Shown in pieces: positions 8,226-35,503 of a DNA stretch of 64,000 nt; position 1 is the stretch's first letter, and each line of letters opens with the position of its first letter. The notes beneath the pieces were generated by a model. It saw nothing but the letters and a program-made list of their open reading frames with translations. It was not told the DNA's origin and made no database searches. Location of the stretch: contig JACRJP010000004.1 of assembly GCA_016215455.1 (NCBI GenBank), forward strand, positions 21,132 through 85,131, written 5' to 3'. Both the position numbers and the translations under genes were made by a program. This DNA is from Candidatus Tayloriibacteriota bacterium (GTDB lineage Bacteria > Patescibacteriota > Minisyncoccia > Phycocordibacterales > PALSA-1337).

Positions 8226-8231
8226 TTTCTA

Positions 8232-8268
8232 GATGAGGTTGCTGGTTCGAATCCGGCAGAGTCTATAA
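8232..8268 (+). repeat. Degenerate direct repeat of the 3' half of tRNA-Cys (an att-like site).
   Basis: gatgagg..ttgctGGTTCGAATCCGGCAGagtctat aligns with tRNA positions 7505-7540. The 16 nt GGTTCGAATCCGGCAG match exactly. Both copies are followed by aaaa. Confidence 0.7.
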
Positions 8269-8314
8269 AATATCTCTCCTATACTAATCTTGGTTTTAAT
8301 GATTAAATTATAGT

Positions 8315-9403
8315 ATGAAAAAAATCATTTGGTCTGCAGTTGTTGTTATTATAATTGTGATAGGTTGGTTATTTACTAACAACAAACAGTCTAAATTAGT
8401 AACTAGTCACTCAATTAAGATTGGTGTCATAGCTCCACTTTCTGGCCCTCTAGCAGAATACGGAGAAGCATTTCAGAATGGTATCATCCTTGCGCAAGAG
8501 AAACTTAAGAATAACAAACTCCAATTTGTTTTTGAGGATAGTGCATATGACTCAGGTAAGGCAATTGCTGCTTTTAACAAGCTAAAAGATTTTGATAAGG
8601 TAAATGTGATTATCAACTGGGGTGATCCTACATCGCAAGCCATTGCACCTCTTGTGAAAACTAATTCGATTCCTTTTATCGCGGTGACAACTATTCCATC
8701 AGTTGCTGAACAAAGTCCGTATATCATCAGAACCCTAAATCGTTCAGAAGACGCGGCGGGAGCAACTTGGGAATATTTAAGGTCAAAAAACTTTAAAAAT
8801 GTTGGTATTGTAAAGCTTGAAACACCGTATTTTAATAGTCTTGTAGATTCGCTTATCAAGACAAAACAAACTGACGAAAAAGTTACTATTATTGATACCT
8901 ATCTTTCATTTGGTGATAAAGATTTCAGAACATCGATTAGTAAAATAAAAAATACATCGAAGTATGATGTTATTGGTGTATTCCTTGCGGGAGGTCAAAT
9001 CAGCCAGTTTTATAAACAGGCAAGTACTCTCGAAATGAAAACTCCTACATTTGGGACGGATTTTTTTGAAAGTCAGAGTGATATTGATGCCGCAGGAACA
9101 ACTATGAATGGAGTGGTGTATGTAAACTATGATGTTTCAGATGATTTTAGAACTGAATATCAAAATAGATTCAAAAATATAAGCCAAATTGCATACGCTG
9201 GTAATGGGTACGATACTGTAATGATGCTTAATAGTATTCCAGACGCAGATAAAGATTCAGTTATTAATACTCTTAAGGCTGTAAAAGATTACTCGGGAGT
9301 AGTTGGAAAATGGAATTTACTCGAAACAACCACTGATCGCTATCTTTCATCACCGTTCCATATAAAAATTATCCAGGACGGGATAATAAAAACTCTTAAT
9401 TAA
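8315..9403 (+). CDS. ABC transporter substrate-binding protein, type-1 periplasmic binding fold, resembling Leu/Ile/Val-binding proteins.
   Basis: An N-terminal TM or signal anchor is followed by IGVIAPLSGPLAEYGEAFQNG, characteristic of the Peripla_BP_6/LivJ family. Confidence 0.7.
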   Translation: MKKIIWSAVVVIIIVIGWLFTNNKQSKLVTSHSIKIGVIAPLSGPLAEYGEAFQNGIILAQEKLKNNKLQFVFEDSAYDSGKAIAAFNKLKDFDKVNVIINWGDPTSQAIAPLVKTNSIPFIAVTTIPSVAEQSPYIIRTLNRSEDAAGATWEYLRSKNFKNVGIVKLETPYFNSLVDSLIKTKQTDEKVTIIDTYLSFGDKDFRTSISKIKNTSKYDVIGVFLAGGQISQFYKQASTLEMKTPTFGTDFFESQSDIDAAGTTMNGVVYVNYDVSDDFRTEYQNRFKNISQIAYAGNGYDTVMMLNSIPDADKDSVINTLKAVKDYSGVVGKWNLLETTTDRYLSSPFHIKIIQDGIIKTLN

Positions 9404-9568
9404 GAGTGTGCATATCTATATTTGACAAGTCTACAATATATAGTATTGTAATTTACATGACTTTTTACGGGTCAAACCAAATAAATAACCTCAACCGATC
9501 ACACTCATCTTTGTGTGAAAGCGGGCATTTGTGGCGTTCTGAGTACTAACATCTATTTTCAGTATTTT

Positions 9569-9590
9569 AAACGCCACATATGTGGCGTTT
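9569..9590. promoter_or_regulatory. Perfect 22 bp palindrome, probably an operator. It lies about 35 bp upstream of the ABC exporter start.
   Basis: AAACGCCACATATGTGGCGTTT. A half-site copy ATTTGTGGCGTT occurs again at 9527-9538. Confidence 0.45.
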
Positions 9591-9627
9591 AATTTTTGCT
9601 CTTTAACTTCAACAGAAAGGTGTCCGT

Positions 9628-11394
9628 GTGAAAAAAAGATTCATTACCAACCCTGTCGGCTACCTCTTTGATAAAGTATGGAGGTATTCTGAGGGTAATC
9701 GACGCAAAGTTGCGATATTCTGGTGTATGTTCACACTTGCAAGCGTTGTTTCTCTCGTCTCACGACCATATGTCATGTCAAAAGTGATGAACATTGTTCA
9801 GACTGAGGGAATACATCCGAACAATCTTCCACGACTCATGTGGCTTCTTGTAGGGGTATTCATGTGCTCCGTCGCGTTCTGGATATTACATGGCCCTGCA
9901 CGGGTTATGGAACAGAACAATGCTTTTCTCCTCAGATTAAATTACCGAAAGTTTTTCTTGTGGGGAGTTACGCATTTGCCCATGCAATGGCATTCAGATC
10001 ACCACTCGGGTGATACCATTGATCGCATAGAAAAGGGAACGGGTGCGCTCTACCTATTCGCAAGTGATTCTTACGAATTGTTGTATACGTTCGTAAAACT
10101 CATTGTATGCTATGGAGTCCTTACCTACTTTAACCCCACAGCGGGATTGATAGCATTGTTTTTCATTGTCATATCGGCGATGATCACTATCAAAATTGAT
10201 TCGATACTCGTCAAGAACTATACGATACTTGCTCGTGGAGAAAACACCGCAAGCAAAGGGGTATTCGACATGTTGTCGAATATCACAACGGTCATCATCC
10301 TACGTGTCGAAAAACATGTTTTTGATGCGGTGATCAGTAAGATACGCGCACAAACCGAACTTACCTCACAAACAAACCGACTCGCAGAATTTAAGTGGTT
10401 CCTTACGAGCCTCTGCTGCGCCGGAATGAGTGTGAGTGTGCTCGCGAGTTATATGTATACTCAATCAAAAAGCAGTATTCCTGTGTTGATTGGGTCTGTG
10501 TATCTTTTGCTTGCATATTTGGATAATGTTGATGAAGTGTTCTATCGCTTCACCAGCTTCTACTCAAATATCGTCAAATGGAGGGTGCGTGCAAACAATG
10601 CAGAAGAACTTGCGGTAGATTTTTCTCCCCATGACTTTGACAGCGATAAGCTGCCAGACGATTGGCAGAATATTGATATTAGAGGTCTTTCCTTTGCCTA
10701 CCAAGGCTCAGGAGTTGATCAGCTTAACAATATCAACCTTCAGTTACATCGGGGTAGCAAAGTCGCATTGATTGGTGTAAGTGGTGGTGGAAAAACCACG
10801 CTTCTCAAAGTCATACGCAATCTATATGAACCACGTAGTGGTGAGGTGAGGGTTGACGGAAGACTTTGTCAAAATTGGTTTGGAGACTTCAGTGAATCAG
10901 TGGCATTACTGCCACAGAATCCTGAAATTTTCGACGCAACAGTCTTACACAACATAACTCTTGGTGCAGATTATCCAATGGAACTTATTCAGCAAGCCAT
11001 GAAAGTGGCATGCTTTGATGAGGTTCTTCCTAATCTTCCTCGAGGTCTTGAATCTTTAGTGAACGAGAAGGGGGTAAATCTCTCCGGTGGACAGAATCAA
11101 CGCCTCGCATTAATACGCGGAATTCTTGCATCTGGTGATAAGCCGGTAGTGTTACTCGACGAGCCGACAAGTAGTCTCGATATGGTGACTGAACACAAAG
11201 TGTTTGAACGCCTGTTTAAGCTATTCGAAGGAAAGCTTATCATTTCAACACTCCACCGTTTACATCTACTGCCGCTATTTGATCACATTGTGCTTTTTGA
11301 TGACGGTCGGATTATCGCACAAGGTTCACTTGAACATCTGTTGGAGACGTGCCCACAATTTCAGTATATGTGGAAGATGCACGGAGGGGAATAA
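9628..11394 (+). CDS. ABC transporter with fused permease and ATP-binding domains (type I exporter half-transporter).
   Basis: The N-terminal half is a 6-TM domain. Walker A is GVSGGGKTT, the signature is LSGGQNQR, and Walker B is VVLLDEPTSSLD. The start is GTG after GAAAGG. Confidence 0.85.
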   Translation: MKKRFITNPVGYLFDKVWRYSEGNRRKVAIFWCMFTLASVVSLVSRPYVMSKVMNIVQTEGIHPNNLPRLMWLLVGVFMCSVAFWILHGPARVMEQNNAFLLRLNYRKFFLWGVTHLPMQWHSDHHSGDTIDRIEKGTGALYLFASDSYELLYTFVKLIVCYGVLTYFNPTAGLIALFFIVISAMITIKIDSILVKNYTILARGENTASKGVFDMLSNITTVIILRVEKHVFDAVISKIRAQTELTSQTNRLAEFKWFLTSLCCAGMSVSVLASYMYTQSKSSIPVLIGSVYLLLAYLDNVDEVFYRFTSFYSNIVKWRVRANNAEELAVDFSPHDFDSDKLPDDWQNIDIRGLSFAYQGSGVDQLNNINLQLHRGSKVALIGVSGGGKTTLLKVIRNLYEPRSGEVRVDGRLCQNWFGDFSESVALLPQNPEIFDATVLHNITLGADYPMELIQQAMKVACFDEVLPNLPRGLESLVNEKGVNLSGGQNQRLALIRGILASGDKPVVLLDEPTSSLDMVTEHKVFERLFKLFEGKLIISTLHRLHLLPLFDHIVLFDDGRIIAQGSLEHLLETCPQFQYMWKMHGGE

Positions 11395-18048: not shown

Positions 18049-19161
18049 ATGTCACTATCAATCGGTATTGTAGGACTTCCAAACGTTGGTAAGTCAACAC
18101 TTTTTAATGCTCTGACCAAAAAGTCAGTGCCTGCAGAAAACTATCCATTTTGTACCATCGATCCATCAGTTGGTGTAGTTGCGGTACCTGATGAACGACT
18201 CTACAAACTTGCTGCTTTTTCTCAAACTAAAAAAATAGTTCCTGCGGCTGTTGAATTCGTTGATATTGCAGGTCTCGTCAAAGGTGCGTCAGCAGGTGAA
18301 GGTCTTGGAAACCAATTCCTTTCTAACATTCGAGAAACAGATGCTATCGCTGAAGTAGTTCGAATATTCGAAGATGATAACGTCATCCATGTCGATGGTA
18401 AGATTAATCCTGTATCAGATATTGAAGTTATTAATCTCGAACTCATTCTTGCTGATCTTCAAACAGTGAGTAAACGACTTGCCAACCTTACCAAAGAAGT
18501 AAAGTCGGGTAAAAAAGAAGCGATTATCGAAGCAGGACTCGCGGAGCGTCTTAAAGCTGCACTCGAAGATGGAAAGCTTGCACGAACAGTTACTGCAAAT
18601 GAATTTGAGATGCCATTTCTCAAACACCTACACCTTCTAACATCAAAACCGATTCTCTACGTACTCAACAAGAAAGCAGGAGGGAAGAATCTTGATGAAA
18701 TGACCGTAGATGGAGCAGCTGATCCTCGCTATACCAAACTCATGGATTTCATCAAAAACTCTGGCTCACAATGGGTACTCGTTGATGCGGGAGTAGAGCA
18801 TGAAATGAAAGACCTTTCAGATACTGATAAAAAGGAAATGCGTGAGGGACTCGGTGCAAAAGATGACGGTATCGATGCTCTCATTCGAGCTGGATATGAA
18901 ACACTCAATCTCATTACCTACTTCACAACAGGTGAAGTTGAAACTCGAGCATGGACTATTCAGAAAGGTTGGACAGCACCAGAAGCAGGTACTGCAATTC
19001 ATGGTGACTTCAAAGACAAATTTATCCGTGCAGAAGTAATTGAATGGGATAAGTTACTTGAAGCAGGATCATTTGGTGCAGCTCGAGAAAAAGGACTTCT
19101 TCGTACAGAAGGAAAGGAATACATCGTTAAGGATGGTGATGTGATGGAGTTTAAAATCTAA
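18049..19161 (+). CDS. ychF: Ribosome-binding ATPase YchF.
   Basis: [18 protein letters not shown], and a TGS domain at the C-terminus. Confidence 0.95.
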
Positions 19162-19172
19162 ATAAAAAGTAG

Positions 19173-19189
19173 AGGTTATAAAATACCTC
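19173..19189. terminator. Bidirectional hairpin between convergent genes.
   Basis: GAGGT-tataaaat-ACCTC. Confidence 0.4.
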
Positions 19190-19706
19190 AACAAGTTTGC
19201 GCAGGAACAGTAGCACCACCAAGACTTCTGAAGATCTCCGTCGCATCATACGCAGCATCCGAACCAATGAGTCGCATAACAGCAACGGCAAGGTTCTCTA
19301 TTCGTTGGGGTGAGACATCAATCGGCTCAATACGTAAATGTGCCTTTTGAGTGGCGATGTTGAATTTATGACCGTGGAGCACTAAGTCGAATGTGACTAC
19401 TCTCATCCGACCACGATGCTTAACACAGAAAAAACCATCGATTCCGTAGTCTCTATCAAGCACGGTATTGACCGCACAATAGATATCGAGATGTCTTTGA
19501 ACCAATTTTCGAACTTCCGCATGAACACTGTCTCGAATACCACCTTTTCGATAGTGGCGATTGCCACGACGATGTAAGATGATCACTTCTGAGAGAGCTT
19601 CTTCAAATGTCATACTCCCGACAGGTATGCCTCGATGGTATTCCCAGCAAAGAGACTTACCGAAGAATTCTCGTTCGAATAAACGGCCTCGTTCAGGTCT
19701 ATTCAT
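19188..19706 (-). CDS. Hypothetical protein in a GC-richer islet.
   Basis: 172 aa ORF. I tested the Thg1 and metallophosphoesterase motifs and neither fits. Confidence 0.45.
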   Translation of the reverse strand: MNRPERGRLFEREFFGKSLCWEYHRGIPVGSMTFEEALSEVIILHRRGNRHYRKGGIRDSVHAEVRKLVQRHLDIYCAVNTVLDRDYGIDGFFCVKHRGRMRVVTFDLVLHGHKFNIATQKAHLRIEPIDVSPQRIENLAVAVMRLIGSDAAYDATEIFRSLGGATVPAQTC

Positions 19707-19878
19707 GGTACACTTTTTTCATTGAAAAGGGTTCTTTCGAAACGCCGAAAGAATACTACCCAGATCTAAATACTTTATACATTAAATACATAGGCATGTC
19801 AATTTTTATTAGTCCACGTTTGACATTTCATCAACGAACCTTATAGTAACCATAGCTGATCAAACACTGGAGGATGCA

Positions 19879-20157
19879 ATGGCAAAATCTAAAGCCCCTT
19901 TACATAAGGTAATCATCGAGATTGAATGTGAAAGCTGTTACGGTTCCGGTATACACCGGATTTCCTACTATCCAGCGAAAGTGGGAGTTACCTGCAGGAA
20001 ATGTGAGGGTAACGGCTTTATCTTTTTTTCCTACATACCTTTCACAGGCCTCAAAACACGGACTGATGTAACTAAAGTCTTCAGAAACAACCCCATGGCA
20101 AGTGGAGCAAATCCATTTGTTTCTGCACAACAATTTCATGCTGGCAAAAGACCTTAA
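19879..20157 (+). CDS. Small Cys-rich protein, a putative zinc ribbon.
   Basis: CESC...16...CRKCEGNG. Confidence 0.3.
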   Translation: MAKSKAPLHKVIIEIECESCYGSGIHRISYYPAKVGVTCRKCEGNGFIFFSYIPFTGLKTRTDVTKVFRNNPMASGANPFVSAQQFHAGKRP

Positions 20158-20211
20158 AGCTTTGCAAAATTTTTAATTAAAAATGCCACCGGATGGTTAA
20201 GAGGGGTAAAC

Positions 20212-20739
20212 CTACTGTCGGTGACGCAGAATTTCTGCCAAACTTCCCAGTGAACCAGGACCTTCGAGAGTGATTCGAACGACATGAGCACCTGCGGGAA
20301 CCTCATCTTTGTCAGAATTGATCCAGACCACCTGAAAGTCTTCACGCACCCCAATTTGAGGTTTTGTCAGGATCTCAGGGAACTGAAGTCGCACCGCTGC
20401 CCAGAAGACTTGCTTGAGAAGATCGGCGTGAGCTGAGTCCCTTTCAAACGTCTGGAGATCAAGGGTCATCTCAGCATGAAAAGCTGCACAATCATGCTTC
20501 TTCACTTCTGCGGTTTCATGAAGAGCTTGATGAGCCTCCTGTTTAATGCGGAGATTATTGGCCTGCACTTCGAGTGAGTTTCTGGCCTCAACGAATAGGT
20601 GCCAGAGCCGTTTGTTGGTATCGTTGAGCTTACCCACCACGGTCTCGCCTTCGCCAACTTTGGTGGTGCTCGCCTTAATCTTGACGATATGAACACTTGT
20701 GATGAGTTCAATAAGGTCGAGCAGTTCTTCGGTGTTCAT
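20212..20739 (-). CDS. Hypothetical protein in a GC-richer islet.
   Basis: 175 aa ORF with no recognisable motifs. Confidence 0.45.
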   Translation of the reverse strand: MNTEELLDLIELITSVHIVKIKASTTKVGEGETVVGKLNDTNKRLWHLFVEARNSLEVQANNLRIKQEAHQALHETAEVKKHDCAAFHAEMTLDLQTFERDSAHADLLKQVFWAAVRLQFPEILTKPQIGVREDFQVVWINSDKDEVPAGAHVVRITLEGPGSLGSLAEILRHRQ

Positions 20740-20901
20740 GTGGTAATGTTTTGAGAATACAACTCTTTCATATCACACCTGCGGGTACGATTGCCGCTAG
20801 TTCTGAGATGGTAAAGAGCTTCAAATACACATTTAACACTTAAATATACACATGTCAACCATACAGACTTTTTTACTAAAATATGGTATTTTAATTCCAT
20901 C

Positions 20902-23900
20902 ATGAATCCTTACGACCACTCATACGTCGAAAAGAAATGGCAAAAAGAATGGGCCAAGAAGAAAATTTACACCACTAAAGAAAAGGGAAAGAAGTTCTAT
21001 GTTCTCGACATGTTTCCATATCCTTCAGGAGAAGGTCTCCATGTTGGACACCCAAAGGGATACATTGCAACTGATGTCATTTCTCGTATGAAGCGTATGC
21101 AGGGTCATAATGTTCTTCATCCTATGGGCTTTGATGCTTTCGGTCTTCCTGCAGAGAACTACGCAATCAAGATGAAAACAAACCCGATGATCTCGGTTGC
21201 AGAAAACATTGAACGATACAAACAACAACTCGAAATTCTCGGTTTTGACTATGATTGGTCACGCGAGATCAATACAACTGATCCAAAATACTATAAATGG
21301 ACACAATGGATTTTCAAAAAACTTCACGAAAAGGGGTTGGCATATGAATCATATGAACCTATCAACTGGTGTCCTTTTGATAAGACAGGGTTGGCAAATG
21401 AGGATGTTGAAGATGGTCGTTGTGAACGTTGTGGCACACTTGTAGAGAAAAAACCTCTTCGTCAGTGGGTACTTCGTATTACAGACTACGCAGAGCGTCT
21501 TCTTGCTGATCTTGATGCAAAAGATGTAAATGGTACACCTCTCCTTGATTGGCCAGAATCAATCAAAGAGGCTCAAAGAAATTGGATAGGTAAGAGCGAA
21601 GGTGCAGAAATTGAATTCGCTATCGATATACACGGTGAACCTTCTACGGAAAAGATAAAGGTATTTACCACTCGACCCGACACACTGTTCGGTGTCACCT
21701 ATGTCGTACTCGCTCCTGAACATGCTTTTGTTCAAAAACTCATTGAACAATCTCCAAACAAACAATCACTTCTCGATTACATCACTGCGACTAAAAACAC
21801 TTCACAGATTGATCGTACGGATGCTAAAAAAGAAAAAACTGGTGTTGAAATTACAGGAGTATCTGCAATTAATCCTGCAAACGGTACAAAAGTTCCTGTT
21901 TGGATCGCTGACTATGTGCTTGCTGACTACGGTACAGGTGCGGTCATGGCCGTCCCAGCGCATGACGAACGTGATTGGGTCTTTGCGAAAAAATACAATC
22001 TTCCCATCATCGATGTTGTAACACCGATCGAAGGAGAACCTCATGCTGGTTCAGAATTCCGTAAAACAATCTCAGCGATTGTACACCGAAAGAGTGATAA
22101 TAAATTTCTTGCTCTCAAATGGAAGAAGTTCGGTTGGACATCAGTACCAGTTGGAGGTATAGAAGGGGATGAATCACCTGAAATAACAGCAGAACGTGAG
22201 GTTCTTGAAGAGACTGGATATGTCACAAAAGCTGTACGCACACTCGGTGGTACAGTAGAGTCACATTTCTTTGCTGAGAATAAGAATGTTTGGCGAGCAC
22301 GAGTTGATCAACCAGTTCTTCTTGAACTTGTTGATGAAAATAAAAAAGAAGTTGCTGTCGATGAACTTGAAAAGCATGAATGTGTTTGGCTCACCTCTGA
22401 AGAACTTCTCAAACAAATTACTCATCGTTACAATGCAATTGGTCTTGAACGCTTTATAGCCAAGAATGATGCATACACCGAAGCTGGCAAACTCATCAAT
22501 TCAGGAAAATTTGATGGTCTACGATCAGAAGAAGCAAAGAAAAAGATTACAACCGCAGTTGGAGGAAATTGGGTTACAAAATATAAACTTCGTGACTGGG
22601 TTTTCTCACGCCAACGATATTGGGGTGAACCGTTCCCGATTATTCACTGTGAGAAACATGGTGTTGTCCTTGTTCCTGAAAAAGAATTACCTGTCGAGCT
22701 TCCAAAAGTTGAATCATACGAACCAACAGGTACCGGTGAATCACCTCTTGCTGGTATTTCAGAATGGGTGAATACAAAGTGTCCTCAGTGTATTGCTGAT
22801 AAAAAGAAACCACACTATCTCATCTTTGATTTTGATGGAGTTCTTGGTGATACATGGACTGCAACACTTAAAGCAAAAGTATTGATGGGAGATAGCAAAA
22901 CAGAAGAAGAGGCTCAACAGGCAATCCTCGAATATTTTGATAAAAAACCATTTCACGCAAAAAACGTCCCTATTACACAAGAGAAATCGAACGCCGCGAC
23001 TAAATGGAGCAGAGACTTTGGAGAAAAAATGGCAACGATTGATTTTGATCTCTTCCATGAATTCATCAAAGAAATCAAAAAATATAAGAAAGTAAAAATT
23101 GCTGTAGTTTCATCAGGATCACGCCAATATGTGATCAAAGCAATGAAAAAATCAGGTCTCAAACCGACCCATATTCTCGCATTCGAAGATAGTCACTCAA
23201 AAGAAGAGAAGATCGAGCGTATTTGTAAGGACTGGAAAGTGGATGTAAAGGATATATATTACTTCACCGATACAAAAGCTGATGTCTACGAGCTTGAAGA
23301 TCTACTTGATCGAAACAAACTCATTGGTTGTGCTTGGGGTTATCAAGGTTTTACAAAACTCAATGAAGTTCTTCCTGATAAACAGATTCTCAAAGACTTC
23401 GCTGATATTCATCGCATTCTTAATATAGAATGTTCAGGGAAGCGCGAAACAAATACCATGCCACAATGGGCAGGTTCATCATGGTATCACCTCCGCTATA
23501 TGGATCCTACGAACAAAAAAGTACTCGTCGATCCTAAAAAAGAGAAATTCTGGAACTCTGTTGATCTCTACGTAGGTGGAGCTGAACATGCAACACGACA
23601 CCTTATCTACGCTCGTTTTTGGCACAAATTCTTATATGATATCGGGGTAGTATCGACAATTGAACCATTCTCAAAACTTCAATCCGTTGGTCTCATCATG
23701 GCAGAAGATGGTCGTAAGATGTCAAAACGTTTCGGTAATGTTGTAAATCCCGATGAAATTGTTCGTATCTACGGAGCCGATACATTGCGTCTCTATGAAA
23801 TGTTCATGGGTCCATTTGATCAAGCGATTAGTTGGAGTACCGATAGTATGGTTGGCTCACGAAGATTCATTGAGCGTGTATGGAAGATGGGCCACAAAGT

Positions 23901-24405
23901 ACTTACACAACCTCTATCACAAAAAGATGGTTCAACACTGACTCCAAGTGCTCGCACCGCACTTCATAAAGCAATTAAAAAGGTAGGAGAAGATATTGAA
24001 GACTTCCGTTTCAACACAGCAATCAGTACACTCATGATTACCTTGAATGAACTTGAAAAGGAAGCGATCGTGTCTCGTTCAGATTTTGAAGTATTTCTTA
24101 AATTAGCAGCTCCGTTCATACCACACGTTGCAGAAGAATTATGGAATGAATTAGGTAATAAGAAATCAATTCATCTCTCTGAATGGCCAACACACAATCC
24201 TGAATATCTTGTAGAAGCGGAAATAAAGATTGTCGTTCAAATAAATGGAAAGGTTCGAGCAACATTCACAACGGAAAAGGGAACAAGCGACGAAACCCTT
24301 CAAGAGACTGCTTTAAACCTCCCAGAGACCAAAAAATGGCTCAATGGTGGAACCCCTAAAAAAGTCATTATTATCAAAGAAAAGCTCGTAAATATCGTAA
24401 TATAG
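20902..24405 (+). CDS. leuS: Leucine--tRNA ligase with two inserted domains, one Nudix-like and one HAD-like.
   Basis: HVGH (HIGH) and KMSKR (KMSKS) are present. The editing domain shows TTRPDTLFG...VPAHDERD. At 1167 aa it is far longer than the roughly 820-880 aa of a typical bacterial LeuRS. The two inserts lie at aa ~375-525 and ~636-848. Confidence 0.97.
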   Translation: MNPYDHSYVEKKWQKEWAKKKIYTTKEKGKKFYVLDMFPYPSGEGLHVGHPKGYIATDVISRMKRMQGHNVLHPMGFDAFGLPAENYAIKMKTNPMISVAENIERYKQQLEILGFDYDWSREINTTDPKYYKWTQWIFKKLHEKGLAYESYEPINWCPFDKTGLANEDVEDGRCERCGTLVEKKPLRQWVLRITDYAERLLADLDAKDVNGTPLLDWPESIKEAQRNWIGKSEGAEIEFAIDIHGEPSTEKIKVFTTRPDTLFGVTYVVLAPEHAFVQKLIEQSPNKQSLLDYITATKNTSQIDRTDAKKEKTGVEITGVSAINPANGTKVPVWIADYVLADYGTGAVMAVPAHDERDWVFAKKYNLPIIDVVTPIEGEPHAGSEFRKTISAIVHRKSDNKFLALKWKKFGWTSVPVGGIEGDESPEITAEREVLEETGYVTKAVRTLGGTVESHFFAENKNVWRARVDQPVLLELVDENKKEVAVDELEKHECVWLTSEELLKQITHRYNAIGLERFIAKNDAYTEAGKLINSGKFDGLRSEEAKKKITTAVGGNWVTKYKLRDWVFSRQRYWGEPFPIIHCEKHGVVLVPEKELPVELPKVESYEPTGTGESPLAGISEWVNTKCPQCIADKKKPHYLIFDFDGVLGDTWTATLKAKVLMGDSKTEEEAQQAILEYFDKKPFHAKNVPITQEKSNAATKWSRDFGEKMATIDFDLFHEFIKEIKKYKKVKIAVVSSGSRQYVIKAMKKSGLKPTHILAFEDSHSKEEKIERICKDWKVDVKDIYYFTDTKADVYELEDLLDRNKLIGCAWGYQGFTKLNEVLPDKQILKDFADIHRILNIECSGKRETNTMPQWAGSSWYHLRYMDPTNKKVLVDPKKEKFWNSVDLYVGGAEHATRHLIYARFWHKFLYDIGVVSTIEPFSKLQSVGLIMAEDGRKMSKRFGNVVNPDEIVRIYGADTLRLYEMFMGPFDQAISWSTDSMVGSRRFIERVWKMGHKVLTQPLSQKDGSTLTPSARTALHKAIKKVGEDIEDFRFNTAISTLMITLNELEKEAIVSRSDFEVFLKLAAPFIPHVAEELWNELGNKKSIHLSEWPTHNPEYLVEAEIKIVVQINGKVRATFTTEKGTSDETLQETALNLPETKKWLNGGTPKKVIIIKEKLVNIVI

Positions 24406-24424
24406 CCTTAATATATAAGACGAT

Positions 24425-24453
24425 TTGACAAGAAACTCAGGGTACGGTATAGT
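24425..24453 (+). promoter_or_regulatory. Sigma70-like promoter.
   Basis: TTGACA, 17 bp spacer, TATAGT, upstream of 24484. Confidence 0.5.
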
Positions 24454-24483
24454 CGATACAACAATAAATTATTACCAAAGCAC

Positions 24484-25533
24484 ATGGCCCCAATCACGTT
24501 TAAACCAAAGCAAACAACAAAGCGTCTTCTCGCAGTTCTTCCTGAACGAGCACGAGACGTACTTGTACATCGCTATGGTTTAGGCAAAAGTGATGAACGA
24601 ATGACTCTTGATGCGATTGGAAAGCTCTATGGTATCACTCGTGAACGTGTTCGACAGATCGAAAATTACGCAATTAATAATATTCGAAAATCAGACGCAT
24701 ATAAGTCTGAGAAGTCTGCATTCGCTGAACTCGAAGAAGTACTTCATTCTCTTGGAGGAATTATCGTTGAAGATGATCTCTTTGCACATCTTTCAAAGGA
24801 TATAGCAACTCAAAATCATATTCACTTCCTCCTTGTTCTTGGTGAATCATTTAAGAAACGAAAAGAAGATGGTGAATTTAAGCATCGATGGCATGTAAGC
24901 GACGAACTCGCTAAAAAGGTTGAAGATTCTCTCCGTAAACTCTATGAAGGACTTGGTGACCAAGATCTTCTTCCAGAATCAGAGATTGTTAATGCTTTCC
25001 TTGATCACGTTAAGGAACTTTCTGAGAAATACAAGAACCAAGAAATTCTCAAGCGATGGTTGTCACTTTCAAAGCGTGTAGGTAAGAACCCTATGGGAGA
25101 TTGGGGAGTTTCTCACTCATCAAACATCAAGACTAAGGGTATGCGTGACTATGCATTCCTTATCATCCGAAAGCATGGTTCTCCGATCCACTTCCGTGAA
25201 GTAGCAAAAAATATCGAAAAGATATTTAAGAAAAAGGCTCACGTAGCAACATGTCACAACGAACTCATCAAGGATCCTCGATTCGTTCTTGTTGGACGAG
25301 GTCTCTATGCTCTTGCTGAATGGGGATACATGAGTGGTGTCGTTAAAGATGTTATTAAGAAGATTCTTGATAAGAATGGTCCTCTTACAAAAGATGAGAT
25401 CATCGATAAAGTTCTCAAAGAACGTTACGTAAAGGAAAACACCATCATGGTAAACCTCCAGAATCAGAGATTCTTCAAAAAAGACAAAGAGGGACGTTAC
25501 TCAATCATCGAGACAGCACAAATCGAAAAGTAA
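24484..25533 (+). CDS. Protein with an N-terminal sigma-70 region-4-like HTH and an unknown C-terminal domain.
   Basis: RARDVLVHRYGL...TLDAIGKLYGITRERVRQIENYAINNIRK resembles RpoD region 4. Confidence 0.6.
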   Translation: MAPITFKPKQTTKRLLAVLPERARDVLVHRYGLGKSDERMTLDAIGKLYGITRERVRQIENYAINNIRKSDAYKSEKSAFAELEEVLHSLGGIIVEDDLFAHLSKDIATQNHIHFLLVLGESFKKRKEDGEFKHRWHVSDELAKKVEDSLRKLYEGLGDQDLLPESEIVNAFLDHVKELSEKYKNQEILKRWLSLSKRVGKNPMGDWGVSHSSNIKTKGMRDYAFLIIRKHGSPIHFREVAKNIEKIFKKKAHVATCHNELIKDPRFVLVGRGLYALAEWGYMSGVVKDVIKKILDKNGPLTKDEIIDKVLKERYVKENTIMVNLQNQRFFKKDKEGRYSIIETAQIEK

Positions 25534-25586
25534 TCCCACAAAAACACTCCACAACGGGGTGTTTTTGCTATATACTTATAGACGAC

Positions 25587-26867
25587 ATGGAATTTGCTAC
25601 TCTTTTCAATGAGCTTAATCAGCAATTGCACTCAGACATCATCCCTCAGGTGATTTCTATCGTCGCAAATAGTGCACCACTTTGGCTCCCAATTATTCTT
25701 TGGAAAATATTTTGGCCTCTATGGGTTGACTATGTGCGTGCAGAATACTTTCTCAGTGAAGCGTATACACTGCTTGAAATAAAGCTTCCCAAAGAAACTC
25801 TCAAATCTCCTCTAGCGATGGAACTTTTCCTCACATCACTTCACCAGACAAGTGGTGAAGGAAACCTCTACGATAAGTTTTGGCTTGGTAAAACTCGACC
25901 ATGGTTTTCTCTTGAAATCGTATCCATCGAAGGTGACGTGCATTTCTTTATATGGATGAGAAAATCATGGAAAAATTTTATTGAATCATCTCTCTATGCT
26001 CAATTCCCAGGAATAGAAATATACGACCGTGAACATAGTGACTATGCACGTGCACTTCATTTTGATGGAAAGACAATGGCTGCATGGCCATGTGAACTCG
26101 AACTTACAAAACCGGATCCATATCCAATCAAGACATATGTTGACTATGGTCTCGATAAAGATCCTAAAGAGGAATTTAAAGTTGATCCCCTTGCTCCTTT
26201 GATTGAATTTCTTGGTTCAATGGGTGCAAATCAGCAGATATGGATTCAGATCATTGTACGTGCTCACAAATCAGAACGTCTTAAGGCTGGACATTTCTTT
26301 AAATACGAAGATTCATGGAAAGAAGATGCAAAGAAAGAAATCAACACCATACTCGTACGTGATGCAAAAACAAAAGTTGCAGGAACTGAAAATGAACAAG
26401 GTTTTCTTGTATCACCAACTATAACTAAAGGTGAGCAGGATGTCGTTGCTGCTCTTGAACGTTCTCTTACAAAACAAGCGTTTGATGTTGGTATTCGAGG
26501 TATATACATTGCTAATAAAAAAGAATTTTTCAGTAAATCAAACATCAGTGGACTTACAGGGTCTTTCAAACAGTTTAGTTCAGAACATTTAAATGGTTTC
26601 AAACCAAATGGAAGTGTATGGGGACCATCATTTAGTTTTCCATGGCAGGACTTTAGAGATTATCGAAAAAATAGGATGATTTCTCGTTTCCTTGCTGCAT
26701 ATCGACGACGAGCATTTTTCTTTCCACCAGAGGTGGGGAAGGCAATGGTCCTCAATACTGAAGAATTAGCAACTATCTTCCATTTCCCAGGCCAAGTAGC
26801 AGCTGCACCAACTTTGACACGTATTGGTTCAAAGAAGTCAGAAGCTCCGTCAAACCTCCCTATATAA
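25587..26867 (+). CDS. Hypothetical protein of 426 aa.
   Basis: A long ORF with no recognised motif. It overlaps the mltG start by a few nt. Confidence 0.55.
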   Translation: MEFATLFNELNQQLHSDIIPQVISIVANSAPLWLPIILWKIFWPLWVDYVRAEYFLSEAYTLLEIKLPKETLKSPLAMELFLTSLHQTSGEGNLYDKFWLGKTRPWFSLEIVSIEGDVHFFIWMRKSWKNFIESSLYAQFPGIEIYDREHSDYARALHFDGKTMAAWPCELELTKPDPYPIKTYVDYGLDKDPKEEFKVDPLAPLIEFLGSMGANQQIWIQIIVRAHKSERLKAGHFFKYEDSWKEDAKKEINTILVRDAKTKVAGTENEQGFLVSPTITKGEQDVVAALERSLTKQAFDVGIRGIYIANKKEFFSKSNISGLTGSFKQFSSEHLNGFKPNGSVWGPSFSFPWQDFRDYRKNRMISRFLAAYRRRAFFFPPEVGKAMVLNTEELATIFHFPGQVAAAPTLTRIGSKKSEAPSNLPI

Positions 26868-26868
26868 C

Positions 26869-27846
26869 ATGGATCCAATTACTCCGGCCCCTTTCTTCAG
26901 TCGATTTAAAAAAATACTTGCGACCACTATCTGTGCAGCTGTCGCTGTTGGTATTATCGCAACCTATATTATTTTCCTTCAATCTCCAAAAAACTTTCCC
27001 GAACCTGGATATATTCATATTTCCAAAGGAGAACTTTTGAGTGATGTTGCTTACCGATTAGCACAAGAGGGATACATTAAGTCTCCTTTGTTTTTTACTG
27101 TATCAGCAACTCTTCTTGGTGGTGACAAAGGAATTCTCGCTGGAGATTATTATCTTGAAAAGAAAATTAACACTCTCGCTCTTGCAGATAGATTAGCTCG
27201 TGGAGATTTTCGATTAGTTCCTATCAAGGTAACACTACCTGAAGGTACTACCGTAAGTGACATGGCAATGATTCTCATGAAAAGAATACCAGGATTTGAT
27301 GGAGCAAAGTTTGCAGCTCTTGCCCAGACTCAGAAAAAAGAAGGATATCTTTTTCCTGACACATATTTCTTTCTTCCTAACGTTACTGCTGAAGAAGTTA
27401 TTAAAGTTCTTTCTGAAAATTTCACAAAGAAGACAGAAATTCTTAAGATAGCGAAAAATAAACTTGCAGCAACTGTCATTCTTGCTTCAATTATTGAAGA
27501 AGAAGGCGCAACAACAGAATCACGTCGAATGATTTCAGGTATATTACAAAAACGTCTTGCAGAAGGCATGCTACTGCAGGTAGATGCTCCTTTTGCATAT
27601 GCTATAGGTAAGTCTACCTATGATCTTACCCTAGAAGATCTCAAGAGTACTTCACCGTACAATACCTATCGTTATAAAGGGCTTACACCTACCCCTATCA
27701 GTAATCCTGGCCTTGATTCATTACAAGCAGCTATCACACCAACACCTTCTCCTTACTATTTCTATCTCACTGAACGTGACGGAACTATCCACTATGCACG
27801 TACCTATGAAGAACATTTGGTAAATAAAGCAAAATATATCAAATAG
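26869..27846 (+). CDS. mltG: Endolytic murein transglycosylase MltG (YceG family).
   Basis: An N-terminal TM is followed by a YceG-like domain with GMLLQVDAPFAY and YNTYRYKGLTPTPISNPG. I chose the start at MDPITPAPFF. Confidence 0.85.
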   Translation: MDPITPAPFFSRFKKILATTICAAVAVGIIATYIIFLQSPKNFPEPGYIHISKGELLSDVAYRLAQEGYIKSPLFFTVSATLLGGDKGILAGDYYLEKKINTLALADRLARGDFRLVPIKVTLPEGTTVSDMAMILMKRIPGFDGAKFAALAQTQKKEGYLFPDTYFFLPNVTAEEVIKVLSENFTKKTEILKIAKNKLAATVILASIIEEEGATTESRRMISGILQKRLAEGMLLQVDAPFAYAIGKSTYDLTLEDLKSTSPYNTYRYKGLTPTPISNPGLDSLQAAITPTPSPYYFYLTERDGTIHYARTYEEHLVNKAKYIK

Positions 27847-27880
27847 TGACGAGGTGTATATGCTGTGATATAACCATCAT

Positions 27881-28975
27881 ATGAATATTCCTCGAGGGAA
27901 CAATCAAAAAGTATATGTTGGTATGTCAGGTGGAGTTGATAGCTCTGTCTCTGCGGCGCTACTTAAAGAAGCTGGGTACGATGTCACTGGTGTGTTCATC
28001 AAGGTATGGCAACCTGATTGGGTAACCTGTACATGGAAAGAAGATCGTCTTGATGCTCTCCGTGTAGCTGCACAGCTTGATATTCCTTTCATAACCCTTG
28101 ATCTTGAAGCTGACTACAAAAAACATGTTGTCGACTATATGGTAAGCGAATATACCGCAGGACGAACCCCTAACCCTGATGTAATGTGTAATAAGTACGT
28201 TAAGTTCGGAGCATTTTTCGATTGGGCAATCAAACAAGGCGCTGACTATGTAGCAACAGGACACTATGCGCAAACAGTTACACGTGCTGATGGAACATAT
28301 CTTGCTAAAGGAAATGACCCGACTAAAGATCAATCATATTTCCTTTGGACACTACACAGTACTCATCTCAAGAAAACTCTTTTTCCTGTCGGGGATATCG
28401 AAAAAACAGAAGTACGAAAATTAGCACAAAAATTTAAACTTCCGAATGCAACCAAAAAAGACAGTCAAGGGCTTTGCTTCATTGGTAAAGTAGAACTTAA
28501 AGAATTTCTATCTCATTTTGTGACATCTACAAAAGGAAATGTCATATCAGAAACAGGTAAGGTACTGGGAAGTCATGATGGTGCAGTATTTTATACCATA
28601 GGTCAGCGACATGGCTTTACCGTCGATCAATCTTCACCAAATGAACTTCCATATTTTGTGATTAATAAAAATATTGATCAGAATACTATTACCGTATCAC
28701 ATGATGATCCTCGATCTCTCGTACATTCACCAACACTTTGGAAAGTAATTCGTCTACACAATACTCTTTGGTCGAATAATCCTCCTCAAGAAGGGAAGGT
28801 GTACCAGGTACGTGCTCGGTATCGTCAAGAACTCGTTGAGTGTGTATTCAAGAAGATTGTCGGCCAAGAGAATGAGTGGCTTGCAGAAGTATCTCAACCA
28901 CTAGGTGCTACACCAGGACAGTCACTCGTCGTATACGATCAAAATATCTGTATTGGCGGTGGTAGTATCATCTAG
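27881..28975 (+). CDS. mnmA: tRNA-specific 2-thiouridylase MnmA.
   Basis: The PP-loop is VGMSGGVDSSV. Catalytic Cys residues are present. Confidence 0.93.
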   Translation: MNIPRGNNQKVYVGMSGGVDSSVSAALLKEAGYDVTGVFIKVWQPDWVTCTWKEDRLDALRVAAQLDIPFITLDLEADYKKHVVDYMVSEYTAGRTPNPDVMCNKYVKFGAFFDWAIKQGADYVATGHYAQTVTRADGTYLAKGNDPTKDQSYFLWTLHSTHLKKTLFPVGDIEKTEVRKLAQKFKLPNATKKDSQGLCFIGKVELKEFLSHFVTSTKGNVISETGKVLGSHDGAVFYTIGQRHGFTVDQSSPNELPYFVINKNIDQNTITVSHDDPRSLVHSPTLWKVIRLHNTLWSNNPPQEGKVYQVRARYRQELVECVFKKIVGQENEWLAEVSQPLGATPGQSLVVYDQNICIGGGSII

Positions 28976-33613: not shown

Positions 33614-35503
33614 GTGTGCTATATTTTCTCCATGAATTCCCACGAGATCCGCAAAAAATACCTCGATTTTTATGCTTCAAAAAAGCATACCATCATCCCG
33701 TCTTCATCACTTGTTCCTGATAACGATCCTACAACTCTCTTTACTGGATCAGGAATGCAACCTCTCATTCCATATCTTCTTGGAGCAAAGCATCCACAAG
33801 GAACACGTCTTGTTGACTCACAGAAATCTTTCCGTAGTGGTGACATCGAAGATATTGGGGATAATCGCCATACAACATTTTTTGAAATGCTTGGTAACTG
33901 GTCACTTGGTGACTATTTCAAAAAAGAACAACTCCCGTGGGTATTTGAATTTCTCATTGACCATGTAGGGCTCGATCCCAAGAAACTTTACGTTACCGTC
34001 TTCATCGGGGATGAAAAAAATAATCTTCCTCGTGATACTGATTCAGTGGCCATTTGGAAAGATCTTTTTGCACAAAAAGGAATTGAGGCAAAGGATGTAG
34101 AAATGGGAAGTGAAGCGGAAGCGGCCGAAAAAGGCATGCAGAATGGCCGTATTTTCTACTATGACGGTAAGAAAAACTGGTGGTCACGTTCAGGTGAGCC
34201 AAGTAAAATGCCAGCAGGTGAACCAGGTGGTCCTGACTCTGAGTTGTTCTATGAATTCGACTTCGTACAACACGATCCAAAATTTGGTACACATTGTCAT
34301 CCAAATTGTGACTGTGGTCGTTACCTTGAAATCGGTAACTCAGTATTCATGGAATACAAAAAGAATGCCGACGGAACATTTTCAAAACTTCCACAACAAA
34401 ACGTTGACTTCGGTGGAGGGCTTGAACGTATTGCAATGGCGTCAGTATATTCTTCAGATATTTTTGATATTGATCTTCTCAAGGGAATCGTAACAACTCT
34501 TGAATCTCTTTCAGGGAAGTCATATAAAGATGCTGCATACACTGCAGCTTTCCGTGTTGTAGCCGACCATATTCGATCTGCCACATTTCTCATCGGAGAT
34601 GGAGTAAGTCCATCAAATAGTGAACGTGGATATTTTGTCCGACGACTTCTTCGACGAGCTATTCGCTTCTGGGATACACTTGGTATTGCAAACGGTGGAC
34701 TCTCACAAATTGTTCTTCCTCTTTTAGAGAAATATAAAGAAGCATATCCTGAAACATACGCACAATCAGCTCGTATCATCACAGAAATCGATACTGAAGA
34801 GAAAAAATTCCGAGCAACACTTCGCCAAGGCCTTAAAGAATTTGAAAAACTTGCTCAGAATAAACAAATCAGTGGTGAACAGGCCTTCGCACTCTTTTCA
34901 AGTTATGGTTTTCCTATAGAAATTACTCTTGAGCTTGCAAAGGAAAAGAATATTACCGTCGATCGTGAAGCTTTTGATACTGAAATGAAAAAACACCAGG
35001 ATCTCTCACGTGCTGGATCTGAAAAGAAATTCAAAGGAGGGCTTGCAGACACAAGTGAGATGTCACTTAAGTATCATACCGCTACACATCTTTTGAATGC
35101 GGGTCTTCGTGCTGTACTCGGAAATCATATTGGTCAAAAGGGAAGTAATATCACTCCTGAACGTCTTCGTTTTGATTTCAATCATGTTACAAAACTCACT
35201 GATGAAGAAAAAAAGAAGGTGGAAGATTTTGTTAACGAGGCAATTGCACGTAAACTTCCTGTTTCATGGAAAGAGATGCCAAAGACTGAAGCAGAAAAGC
35301 TTGGAGCAATTCATGCATTCGGAGAAAAATATGGTGACATTGTAAAGGTATACAGTGTTGGAGATGAGACAACTGGAGTACTCAGTCGTGAATTTTGTGG
35401 AGGACCACATGTGGAAAACACAGGGGTACTTGGTCACTTCAAAATAGCTAAAGAAGAGGCCGTATCTGCTGGGGTACGACGCATCAAGGCGGTGTTGGAG
35501 TAG
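33614..35503 (+). CDS. alaS: Alanine--tRNA ligase, short form: catalytic, tRNA-recognition and editing domains without the C-Ala domain.
   Basis: FTGSGMQP, GNWSLGDYFK, and the editing HxxxH...CxxxH region (HTATHLL, CGGPHV). It is 629 aa. The start could instead be ATG 33632. Confidence 0.9.
   Translation: MCYIFSMNSHEIRKKYLDFYASKKHTIIPSSSLVPDNDPTTLFTGSGMQPLIPYLLGAKHPQGTRLVDSQKSFRSGDIEDIGDNRHTTFFEMLGNWSLGDYFKKEQLPWVFEFLIDHVGLDPKKLYVTVFIGDEKNNLPRDTDSVAIWKDLFAQKGIEAKDVEMGSEAEAAEKGMQNGRIFYYDGKKNWWSRSGEPSKMPAGEPGGPDSELFYEFDFVQHDPKFGTHCHPNCDCGRYLEIGNSVFMEYKKNADGTFSKLPQQNVDFGGGLERIAMASVYSSDIFDIDLLKGIVTTLESLSGKSYKDAAYTAAFRVVADHIRSATFLIGDGVSPSNSERGYFVRRLLRRAIRFWDTLGIANGGLSQIVLPLLEKYKEAYPETYAQSARIITEIDTEEKKFRATLRQGLKEFEKLAQNKQISGEQAFALFSSYGFPIEITLELAKEKNITVDREAFDTEMKKHQDLSRAGSEKKFKGGLADTSEMSLKYHTATHLLNAGLRAVLGNHIGQKGSNITPERLRFDFNHVTKLTDEEKKKVEDFVNEAIARKLPVSWKEMPKTEAEKLGAIHAFGEKYGDIVKVYSVGDETTGVLSREFCGGPHVENTGVLGHFKIAKEEAVSAGVRRIKAVLE

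Follow-up and report, generated by a model that had tools for sequence, protein, structure and literature searches.

Why an aminoacyl-tRNA synthetase (aaRS) should house hydrolases of two other superfamilies within its own chain is the question raised by a leuS gene from a Candidatus Tayloriibacteriota bacterium. The gene occupies positions 20902–24405 on the forward strand of the window, by which we mean the whole 64-kb stretch of DNA analyzed here (contig JACRJP010000004.1), and encodes a bacterial-type leucyl-tRNA synthetase (LeuRS) of 1167 aa (plus stop codon) with two embedded hydrolase domains, one of the Nudix family and one of the HAD superfamily. Drawing on profile searches, structural prediction, comparison with relatives, and gene linkage, we propose, with a probability of roughly 55%, that this LeuRS would carry, as a scaffold, two small-molecule hydrolases that are catalytically competent and most likely act sequentially on nucleotide-type substrates.

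Two hydrolase domains embedded in a LeuRS

The open reading frame (ORF) of leuS was uninterrupted, and its product matched the NCBIfam model TIGR00396 (leuS_bact) with 982 bits (cut-off, 548.4) in three stretches split by the inserts, and T. thermophilus LeuRS (PDB ID: 1H3N) with an E-value of 2e-193 (phmmer). In the alignment with 1H3N, residues 2–380, 523–631, 846–949, and 939–1167 of the window protein corresponded to Thermus residues 2–368, 375–488, 491–594, and 637–876, respectively, and the Thermus leucine-specific domain was mostly missing. A preliminary description of this DNA, made from the sequence alone, had proposed two in-frame insertions in a LeuRS of this length, one past VPAHDERD in the CP1 editing domain and one right behind the CPQC of the ZN-2 knuckle; the continuous ORF and the 1H3N alignment confirmed both the insertions and their positions.

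Domain boundaries were assigned from Pfam matches, the 1H3N alignment, and motif positions, and all features described here lie on the forward strand. The N-terminal half of the catalytic core (aa 1–225; nt 20902–21576) contained the HIGH motif in the form HVGH (aa 47–50; nt 21040–21051) and the ZN-1 region. It was followed by the N-terminal part of the CP1 editing domain (aa 226–380; nt 21577–22041), with the Thr-rich motif TTRPDTLFG (aa 256–264) and VPAHDERD (aa 351–358; nt 21952–21975). The editing-domain profile PF13603 scored 223 bits, its positions 1–148 of 185 covering aa 226–381, and was split by insert 1 at position 148; TTRPDTLFG and AVPAHDERD (aa 350–358) aligned with the editing motifs of Thermus LeuRS. 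Between the two inserts lay the remaining editing domain and the CP/ZN-2 region (aa 523–631; nt 22468–22794), containing NSGKFDG (aa 533–539), RQRYWG (aa 570–575), HCEKHG (aa 582–587), and CPQC (aa 627–630; nt 22780–22791). Insert 2 was followed by the C-terminal half of the catalytic core, the anticodon-binding domain (PF08264; aa 1019–1129), and the C-terminal domain (together nt 23437–24402), with GKRETNTM at aa 846–853 and KMSKR at aa 939–943 (nt 23716–23730). The class I and editing motifs HVGH, KMSKR, TTRPDT, and AHDERD were all intact, and the gene most likely encodes a functional LeuRS that doubles as a scaffold for two hydrolases.

Insert 1 (aa 381–522; nt 22042–22467), located within the CP1 editing domain at what we call site B, comprised 142 aa standing in place of six Thermus residues of a CP1 loop; it was delimited by the 1H3N alignment and characterized with PF00293, AlphaFold2 (AF2), and Foldseek. 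The NUDIX profile PF00293 scored 48.4 bits on the excised insert (E = 1.2e-12) and 43.9 bits in the full protein (gathering score, 21.1). The Nudix box GGIEGDESPEITAEREVLEETGY (aa 418–440; nt 22153–22221) matched GX5EX7REUXEEXGU, with R432, E433, E436, and E437 as catalytic residues, and was the single occurrence of the strict box among all six-frame ORFs of at least 50 aa in the window. The strict box Gx5Ex7REx2EExG was retained in 106 of the 111 site-B copies of relatives. Among the 12 proteins with the architecture of the window protein, the Nudix domain was ~32% identical, and its invariant sites were in essence those of the box (GG, E, RE, and EETG) together with one Arg and one Trp.

The AF2 model of insert 1, calculated with free-standing homologs as the alignment, reached a predicted local distance difference test score (pLDDT) of 93.7. 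Foldseek returned 536 PDB matches at E ≤1e-3, and the 50 listed were all Nudix-family proteins (template modeling [TM] score, 0.53–0.77; probability, 1.0); the predicted alpha/beta/alpha Nudix fold is secure at the level of the model. The leading fold neighbors (TM score, 0.7–0.77; 14–24% identity) were mycobacterial MutT1/Rv2985, Enterococcus MutT/Nudix, Aquifex Ap4A hydrolase, YmfB, RppH, Thermus Ap6A hydrolase, and human NUDT2. Comparison with PDB sequences yielded weak matches (E ~1e-3) to DIPP/DDP1, ADP-ribose pyrophosphatase, and Ap4A hydrolase, and none of the NCBIfam Nudix equivalogs reached its cut-off (bits/cut-off: MutT1, 26.9/475; RppH, 26.5/139; NudB-type, 23.7/103; MutT, 19.2/148; NudE, 17.3/169). 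ApnA (Ap4A) hydrolases reportedly carry a signature Tyr ~17–18 residues past the Nudix box, as Dunn and colleagues are said to have described in 1999. At this spacing, the Nudix subfamily of the window had invariant F456 and F457 (SHFFAENK), which are aromatic residues but not Tyr.

Insert 2 (aa 632–845; nt 22795–23436), a phosphatase-like domain of HAD subfamily IA with a C1 cap, followed the ZN-2 CPQC at what we call site C and comprised 214 aa in place of two Thermus residues following the last Cys of the knuckle; its assignment drew on PF13419, the 1H3N boundaries, and AF2. The HAD_2 profile PF13419 scored 39.6 bits on the excised insert (E = 7.6e-10) and 34.3 bits in the full protein (gathering score, 23.8), and TIGR01509 (HAD-SF-IA-v3) scored 25.3 on the window protein, slightly below its cut-off of 29.4. 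Motif matches and conservation located motif I, FDFDGVL (aa 642–648; nt 22825–22845), with D643 as putative nucleophile and D645 as putative acid/base; motif II, VVSSGS (aa 735–740; nt 23104–23121), with S737; and motif IV, FTDTKAD (aa 788–794; nt 23263–23283), with D790 and D794. Motif III was identified by conservation in homologs as HSKEEK (nt 23194–23211), in which S766-K767-E768 and K770 were invariant. Across 32 embedded homologs and a further 50 that are free-standing, all four motifs were invariant (D643-x-D645-G-V647; S737 and G739; S766-K767; D790-x3-D794 and E797). Motif I occurred only once among the six-frame ORFs. Within the 12 proteins of the same architecture, the HAD domain was 55% and the LeuRS segments were 60–68% identical to the window protein. 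The AF2 model, again based on free-standing homologs, reached a pLDDT of 94.3 and predicted a Rossmannoid core in which a helical C1 cap separates motif I from motif II. The search of PDB sequences with insert 2 gave no match at E ≤0.1, and the HAD fold class is secure as modeled.

The Nudix and HAD identities given in the preliminary description were thus borne out by profile searches of the excised inserts, both of which exceeded the Pfam gathering scores. Its coordinates for the Nudix box and for FDFDGVL, VVSSGS, and FTDTKAD were exact, with catalytic residues conserved across relatives, and the motif III Lys that it had left unassigned is now placed at K767, within the invariant S766-K767 pair.

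A Logan contig of 23.7 kb, assembled independently, encoded an identical protein amid the same neighboring genes, and the insertion points recurred in more than 100 relatives; a chimeric assembly is therefore excluded. A pseudogene was likewise ruled out by the continuous ORF, the independent assembly, and the conserved junctions. GC content across leuS was flat (0.36–0.43), and the GC content of third codon positions was somewhat lower in the inserts (0.23–0.30 vs. 0.33–0.34), with no compositional break; the flat base composition across the gene ruled out a foreign-DNA signature. An intein was also considered and rejected: Pfam matches up to E = 1 included no intein or LAGLIDADG family, and the Nudix and HAD folds leave no part of either insert unexplained.

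Architectures of relatives and linkage of unfused genes

To place the window protein among its relatives, we used the results of a search of 5.8 billion proteins, in which the source names were Patescibacteria, Paceibacterota, or Taylorbacteria and almost all relatives contained PF00293; six hidden Markov models (HMMs) built from pieces of the window protein were then mapped onto the 120 best relatives. A Nudix domain was found at site B in 111 of the 120, and the HAD domain was present in 32. At a further location, site A, which separates the Rossmann half from the editing domain, about 50 of the 120 had an additional Nudix copy or two; the box was intact in 43 of the 69 site-A copies and degenerate in the other 26, the second copy usually being degenerate. 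An additional block of 160–230 aa was carried by 25/120 relatives, in some near the beginning of the editing domain and in others midway through the CP/ZN-2 region; it was an alpha/beta-hydrolase (PF06821, PF00561, and PF12697) in every case checked with Pfam, and its GHSxG elbow was retained in 11 of 13.

The architectures were combinatorial, with 30 distinct ones among the 120 proteins and the exact one of the window in 14. Up to five embedded hydrolases were found in LeuRS of 1300–1722 aa (P0022-type, P0002–P0004, P0013, P0036, and P0041), in the order of two tandem Nudix domains, then the editing domain holding the alpha/beta-hydrolase, the site-B Nudix domain, and the HAD domain. The extreme case was a Taylorbacteria LeuRS of 1722 aa (P0022 in locus L012; PLXZ01000004.1, 4425–9629), in which a HAD domain and an alpha/beta-hydrolase accompany three Nudix domains. 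In public annotation, relatives of the window protein appear as 'leucyl-tRNA synthetase/FMN phosphatase YigB', 'NUDIX domain-containing protein', or 'alpha/beta fold hydrolase'. We take the catalytic residues of both inserts in the window LeuRS to be under purifying selection, and conserved catalytic motifs amid divergence elsewhere form the pattern that would be expected of active enzymes rather than structural filler.

One HAD family (HMM scores, 237–352 bits) occurred at four LeuRS positions: after the ZN-2 knuckle (the window, L012, and L013), in a tandem Nudix-HAD module behind the site-B Nudix domain (L014 from Magasanikbacteria, 6399–9932), where the editing domain begins (L017, 7080–11024), and in the segment that joins the KMSKS region to the anticodon-binding domain (L016, 3559–6000). 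We interpret the insertions at the other LeuRS positions as independent events. Of the earlier proposal of two tolerated insertion sites, both sites were verified, but the wider picture includes at least five positions, up to three Nudix copies, the alpha/beta-hydrolase, and unfused operon forms.

The Nudix subfamily showed a marked preference for this host. A HMMER search of 1.84 billion cluster representatives (50% identity) with the Nudix profile gave 223 matches at E ≤1e-10, and among the best 150 of these, 105 of the 145 new representatives of the subfamily (72%) were LeuRS or LeuRS fragments. Scanning of metagenomes with the same profile placed six of six close loci, among the matches listed, inside LeuRS, and a scan of genomes (GTDB) with the HAD profile gave at least six close loci, the motif IFDFDGV[LI] being generic to HADs; neither of these scans is a census. 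One metagenomic LeuRS-Nudix gene (L031, 3684–7109; Ga0247842_10002604) was broken only by in-frame TGA codons, and two of these stood opposite Gly in the window protein (e.g., YGADTLR and KKVGEDI), which suggests that L031 uses genetic code 25 (Gracilibacteria/Absconditabacteria-like).

Among 116 relatives, the identity of the LeuRS core to that of the window (roughly 63–71%) was uncorrelated with the identity of the Nudix domain (mostly 28–42%; r = -0.03), and the Nudix type of the window (52–73%) occurred only in P0020, P0031, P0037, and P0046. Because Nudix and LeuRS-core identities disagree, here and in the archaeal-type contigs described next, we conclude that the Nudix module has been laterally exchanged between free-standing and embedded states. 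On all three contigs classified as archaeal from record names and Pfam markers (an intein-bearing RNase HII, or TFIIB and ribosomal S8e singly or together), a large class I aaRS gene had a free Nudix gene immediately downstream (L006, 3301–6528; L010, 1828–4983; L011, 1572–5031). In L006 and L010, this aaRS gene was a bacterial-type leuS with the PF13603 editing domain; the LeuRS was 41–43% identical to the window core, and the adjacent Nudix protein was 52–59% identical to the window insert. These data suggest a transfer of the leuS-nudix pair between Patescibacteria and DPANN-type archaea.

Homolog searches with the short inserts returned mostly free-standing proteins and left out known embedded copies, so that the lengths recovered give no estimate of frequency. 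Full-length free-standing homologs were HADs of ~205 aa (43–54% identity) and Nudix proteins of 156–180 aa (50–63%). Stand-alone Nudix-HAD fusions of 370–375 aa (P0160, P0161, P0180, P0186, P0200, and P0211) were also found, with a Nudix domain of another subfamily.

Unfused homologs frequently lay beside aaRS genes. Locus L009 contained nudix, HAD, a leuS of 802 aa without inserts, a sigma70_r4/HARE-HTH gene, and a DUF8128 gene, in synteny with the window; the box of its free Nudix protein was degenerate. In L004 (Kaiserbacteria) and L103, a HAD gene preceded a Nudix-bearing leuS, which was followed by sigma70_r4. The hydrolase pair thus occurs in Patescibacteria as a nudix-HAD-leuS string, as a HAD gene beside a Nudix-bearing leuS, as a free Nudix-HAD fusion, and fully inside LeuRS. 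Beyond leuS, a free-standing HAD of the insert-2 family overlapped with its start the stop of a HisRS-family gene (L008, 3470–5118), and in L002 (1476–5915; JGI 3300045973 Ga0485830_0008604) the Nudix-HAD fusion P0160, a second HAD, and a Ham1-like (ITPase-family) gene lay between ValRS-like pieces, with NDK nearby. In total, five of the eight sampled contexts of free-standing HADs adjoined an aaRS gene.

Several further observations concern these loci. In the window, positions 18049–28975 contained the YchF GTPase gene (18049–19161), leuS, the sigma70_r4/HARE-HTH gene (24484–25533), DUF8128 (25587–26867), YceG/MltG (to 27846), and MnmA (27881–28975), and the gene order YchF ... leuS ... MnmA was also found in L004, L009, and L103, being kept across distant Patescibacteria. 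The HisRS-family protein of L008 had 344 aa and a Pfam catalytic core only, no anticodon-binding domain being detected. The ValRS-like gene of L002 was seemingly split into ORFs in different frames, and L003 was arranged in the same way; the pieces in L002 were a middle part of 212 aa, with DTWFSSSLWP close to its C-terminus, and a C-terminal part of 427 aa with KMSKSLGN, and the N-terminal part was not in the locus.

Possible roles of the embedded hydrolases

In the proposed scheme, the Nudix pyrophosphohydrolase in the CP1 loop would act on a nucleoside-polyphosphate compound, be it ApnN, a (d)NTP in canonical or damaged form, or another NDP-X, and yield NMP and a phosphorylated product, and the C1-capped HAD-IA phosphatase at the tip of the ZN-2 knuckle would take phosphate off NMP, another Nudix product, or inorganic pyrophosphate (PPi). 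As built-in domains, both hydrolases would be held beside the synthetase at fixed stoichiometry. We infer enzymatic activity, sequential action, and nucleotide substrates alike from sequence comparison. The pairing of Nudix with HAD follows from the free fusions with a different Nudix subfamily, the tandem module of L014, and the nudix-HAD-leuS string. A nucleotide flavor is suggested because of the fold neighbors of the Nudix domain and the company of the HAD, namely ThyA, Dcd, HIT, and DHFR as well as Ham1 and NDK. The first four come from locus L101 (776–6875; GCA_054682895.1), in which genes for CYTH, dCTP deaminase, HIT hydrolase, ThyA (overlapping the HAD gene), HAD, and a RimK-like ATP-grasp protein are followed a few genes downstream by DHFR, and this cluster hints that the HAD family acts on nucleotides. 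Small molecules are the usual substrates of C1-capped HADs, and the presence of a second Asp in HAD motif I (here D645) marks phosphoryl transfer, not dehalogenation.

Several points weigh against this proposal. No NCBIfam Nudix or HAD enzyme equivalog was reached, the best score being 27 bits against cut-offs of at least 103, and the fold neighbors of both inserts were only 10–24% identical and functionally mixed. The Nudix domain evidently does not need the HAD, because many relatives carry it without HAD, 39 of the 120 having Nudix only. Nor is the coupling of HAD to aaRS genes obligatory, because three of the eight HAD contexts lacked an aaRS neighbor: L101; L015, in which a class-I GATase gene precedes the HAD gene; and L102, in which the HAD gene lies between those for a glyoxalase and a pseudouridine synthase. 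This context sample was small and picked for long contigs. The evidence bearing on an order of Nudix and then HAD action consists of fusion and linkage only, and the proposal leaves without explanation why LeuRS, over any other protein, is the host.

Whether the substrates would come from the synthetase itself divides the main alternatives. In the broadest of them, which is possible but doubtful, Patescibacterial LeuRS would be a 'hydrolase hub' whose Nudix, HAD, and, in relatives, alpha/beta-hydrolase domains, whether built in or encoded next to it, work directly on products or ligands of the synthetase, such as ApnN-type adenylylated by-products, released species derived from aminoacyl-adenylate, PPi, AMP, or even modified tRNA ends; the outcome would be a self-cleaning or self-repairing synthetase, independently selected at several sites and moved with leuS into DPANN-type archaea. 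A narrower version, which we consider rather unlikely, holds that the Nudix domain cleaves Ap4A, Ap3A, Ap4N, or adenylylated by-products that LeuRS makes from Leu-AMP, with the HAD removing AMP or PPi. Such a clean-up of Ap4A or aminoacyl-adenylate, already raised in the preliminary description, is compatible with the data, although not told apart from general nucleotide sanitation. LeuRS is reported, in work by Goerlich and colleagues of 1982, to be a weak producer of Ap4A relative to LysRS, PheRS, and HisRS, and this speaks against the clean-up, as do the lack of a match to any ApnA hydrolase or RppH equivalog in NCBIfam and the fact that Ap4A cleavage needs no HAD. The HAD neighbors ThyA, Dcd, Ham1, and NDK also hint at broader nucleotide roles. 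In its favor, aaRSs make Ap3-5N, and Nudt2, RppH, and MutT1 cleave Ap4A asymmetrically (PMC7705103). The fold neighbors of the Nudix domain include Aquifex Ap4A hydrolase (PDB ID: 3I7U; TM score, 0.77), the Rv2985 ApnA hydrolase, the Thermus Ap6A hydrolase Ndx1, NUDT2, and CT771, and DIPP/DDP1 and 3I7U are among the PDB sequence matches. Linkage specifically to aaRS genes, including valS and hisS in addition to leuS, points in the same direction, and the many invariant basic residues of the Nudix subfamily would suit a polyphosphate chain. The opposite explanation, that ordinary pool-sanitation or salvage enzymes of the MutT/YjjG/RdgB type, unrelated to aminoacylation, became fixed in or beside an essential constitutive gene of tiny genomes for co-expression, with LeuRS as an insertion-tolerant host, is unlikely. 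It would account for the house-cleaning neighbors (Ham1-like and NDK, and also dCTP deaminase, HIT, ThyA, and DHFR), for MutT1 and MutT-like proteins among the nearest folds, for the lateral exchange of modules, for the insertion of an unrelated alpha/beta-hydrolase (GHSxG in 11/13), and for the 26 of 69 degenerate site-A boxes, as under relaxed selection. It would also predict many different hosts; instead, 105/145 Nudix-subfamily representatives among the best 150 were in LeuRS, the HAD entered LeuRS at four positions, and the linkage survives unfusing and even apparent transfer to archaeal-type genomes.

The other explanations would leave the two domains with different partners or with none. 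That the HAD is an inorganic pyrophosphatase, which would clear the PPi of leucine activation and drive the reaction forward while the Nudix domain has a separate role, is improbable: BT2127 pyrophosphatase was a mid-ranking fold neighbor of the HAD model, and the equivalog of the HAD-type pyrophosphatase PpaX (NF009804) scored 23.3 bits, below its cut-off of 218. Processing or repair of RNA ends, in which Nudix and HAD would strip (pyro)phosphates from tRNA ends (a toxin-added 3'-pyrophosphate, a 5'-triphosphate, or a cap) in an RppH-like manner, is very improbable. RppH was among the fold and profile neighbors, the top PDB sequence matches were of the DIPP type, which removes the beta-phosphate from a sugar-ring pyrophosphate, and insert 1 sits in the CP1 domain, which receives the tRNA 3' end; however, HADs acting on macromolecules are, as is generally known, capless, the C1-capped ones being the small-molecule class, and the four HAD positions and the free Nudix and HAD proteins speak against a geometry tuned to tRNA ends. 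Degenerate boxes at site A of some relatives and in the free Nudix protein of L009 would fit catalytically dead structural inserts, but the catalytic motifs are invariant in the two domains of the window protein; together with the continuous ORF, the same gene on an independent assembly, the junctions common to more than 100 relatives, and the lack of a compositional break, this leaves a chimera or a pseudogene effectively refuted and dead cargo extremely improbable.

Compared with known systems, the window protein retains the layout of canonical bacterial LeuRS (T. thermophilus, PDB IDs: 1H3N and 2BYT; E. coli, PDB ID: 4AQ7), that is, a Rossmann core with HIGH/KMSKS, ZN-1, CP1 with the Thr-rich and Asp motifs, ZN-2, the anticodon-binding domain, and the C-terminal domain. 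It differs in having a 142-aa Nudix domain for a 6-residue CP1 loop, a 214-aa HAD domain for two residues after the ZN-2 CPxC, a largely lost leucine-specific domain, and His at one ZN-2 ligand position (HCEKHG). The closest parallel for two such enzymes in one chain is mycobacterial MutT1/Rv2985, the top fold neighbor of insert 1 (PDB IDs: 5GGC and 9CXX), which combines a Nudix with a second phosphatase-type domain. MutT1 consists of an N-terminal Nudix and a C-terminal histidine-phosphatase domain and has 8-oxo-(d)GTP and ApnA activities (PMC11784022; PMC7705103). Unlike in the window protein, the partner is an RHG histidine-phosphatase and not a HAD, the domains are joined end to end rather than inserted, no synthetase is involved, and identity is 16–18%. 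IleRS with GNAT (NCBIfam NF040702, ileS_w_GNAT) is likewise a class Ia synthetase with an extra small-molecule enzyme domain, covered by a curated exception model, but concerns IleRS and the GNAT class, and the window protein, with 66 bits against a cut-off of 1999, is not a member.

E. coli MutT, RdgB/Ham1, and the HAD nucleotidase YjjG are separate house-cleaning proteins. They resemble the window system in belonging to the Nudix and HAD-IA superfamilies (with Ham1 in the related locus L002) and in the logic of a pyrophosphohydrolase yielding NMP followed by a nucleotidase, but they are free-standing, the window protein gave no equivalog-level match to them, and we know of no linkage of their genes to aaRS genes. 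The editing modules of aaRSs (CP1 of Leu/Ile/ValRS, INS/YbaK of ProRS, and AlaX-like domains) hydrolyze aminoacyl esters on tRNA. Like the inserts, they are hydrolases in surface loops of synthetases, retained there for quality control; unlike them, the Nudix and HAD domains are phospho(di)ester/anhydride hydrolases rather than dedicated editing folds, and to our knowledge neither has an editing role.

Full-text literature searches and, as far as a search by terms covers it, a survey of the Nudix clan (PMC5389931) yielded no account of a LeuRS combined with a Nudix or HAD domain, and the architecture, widespread and modular as it is, is seemingly undescribed. A synthetase with accessory domains is a known kind of protein; the Nudix/HAD version is new. 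Its earlier characterization as non-canonical holds with respect to every characterized LeuRS and the searchable literature, but the Nudix domain is normal in a large Patescibacterial clade.

In this clade of ultra-small bacteria, one to five extra hydrolases have been built into LeuRS, repeatedly and at different sites, while their catalytic residues were retained and the genes stayed linked even in unfused form. Taken comparatively, this is strong evidence that leucyl-tRNA synthesis and nucleotide/phosphate hydrolysis are functionally tied in a way that no textbook mechanism predicts. Few enzymes have been studied as thoroughly as aaRSs, whose accessory domains have repeatedly exposed new biology, including editing, signaling, and complex formation, and the present proteins offer a testable system for asking whether synthetases need local disposal of ApnN, PPi, AMP, or damaged nucleotides. 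They are also natural cases of large functional domains accommodated in the CP1 and ZN-2 loops, of use in protein engineering, and a marker with which the exchange of genes between CPR bacteria and DPANN-type archaea can be followed. Should the inserts prove unrelated to aminoacylation, they would remain a remarkable example of domains hitch-hiking in reduced genomes.

Other features of the window

Analysis of RNA elements near leuS with Rfam and ARAGORN gave tRNA-Ala (7467–7540) as the sole find. Just upstream of leuS, on the opposite strand, a 175-aa ORF without a Pfam match (20212–20739) lay in the only GC-rich stretch of the neighborhood (0.49 at 20250–20749 vs. ~0.40 around it). The AlaRS encoded at 33614–35503 on the forward strand had only 629 aa, with the Pfam catalytic and tRNA_SAD domains, and ended right after tRNA_SAD; a C-terminal extension of the C-Ala type seems to be missing. 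Finally, the gene at 50861–52780 on the forward strand encoded an unusual fusion of a D-Ala-D-Ala carboxypeptidase (Peptidase_S11) with a C-terminal Kelch-repeat beta-propeller.

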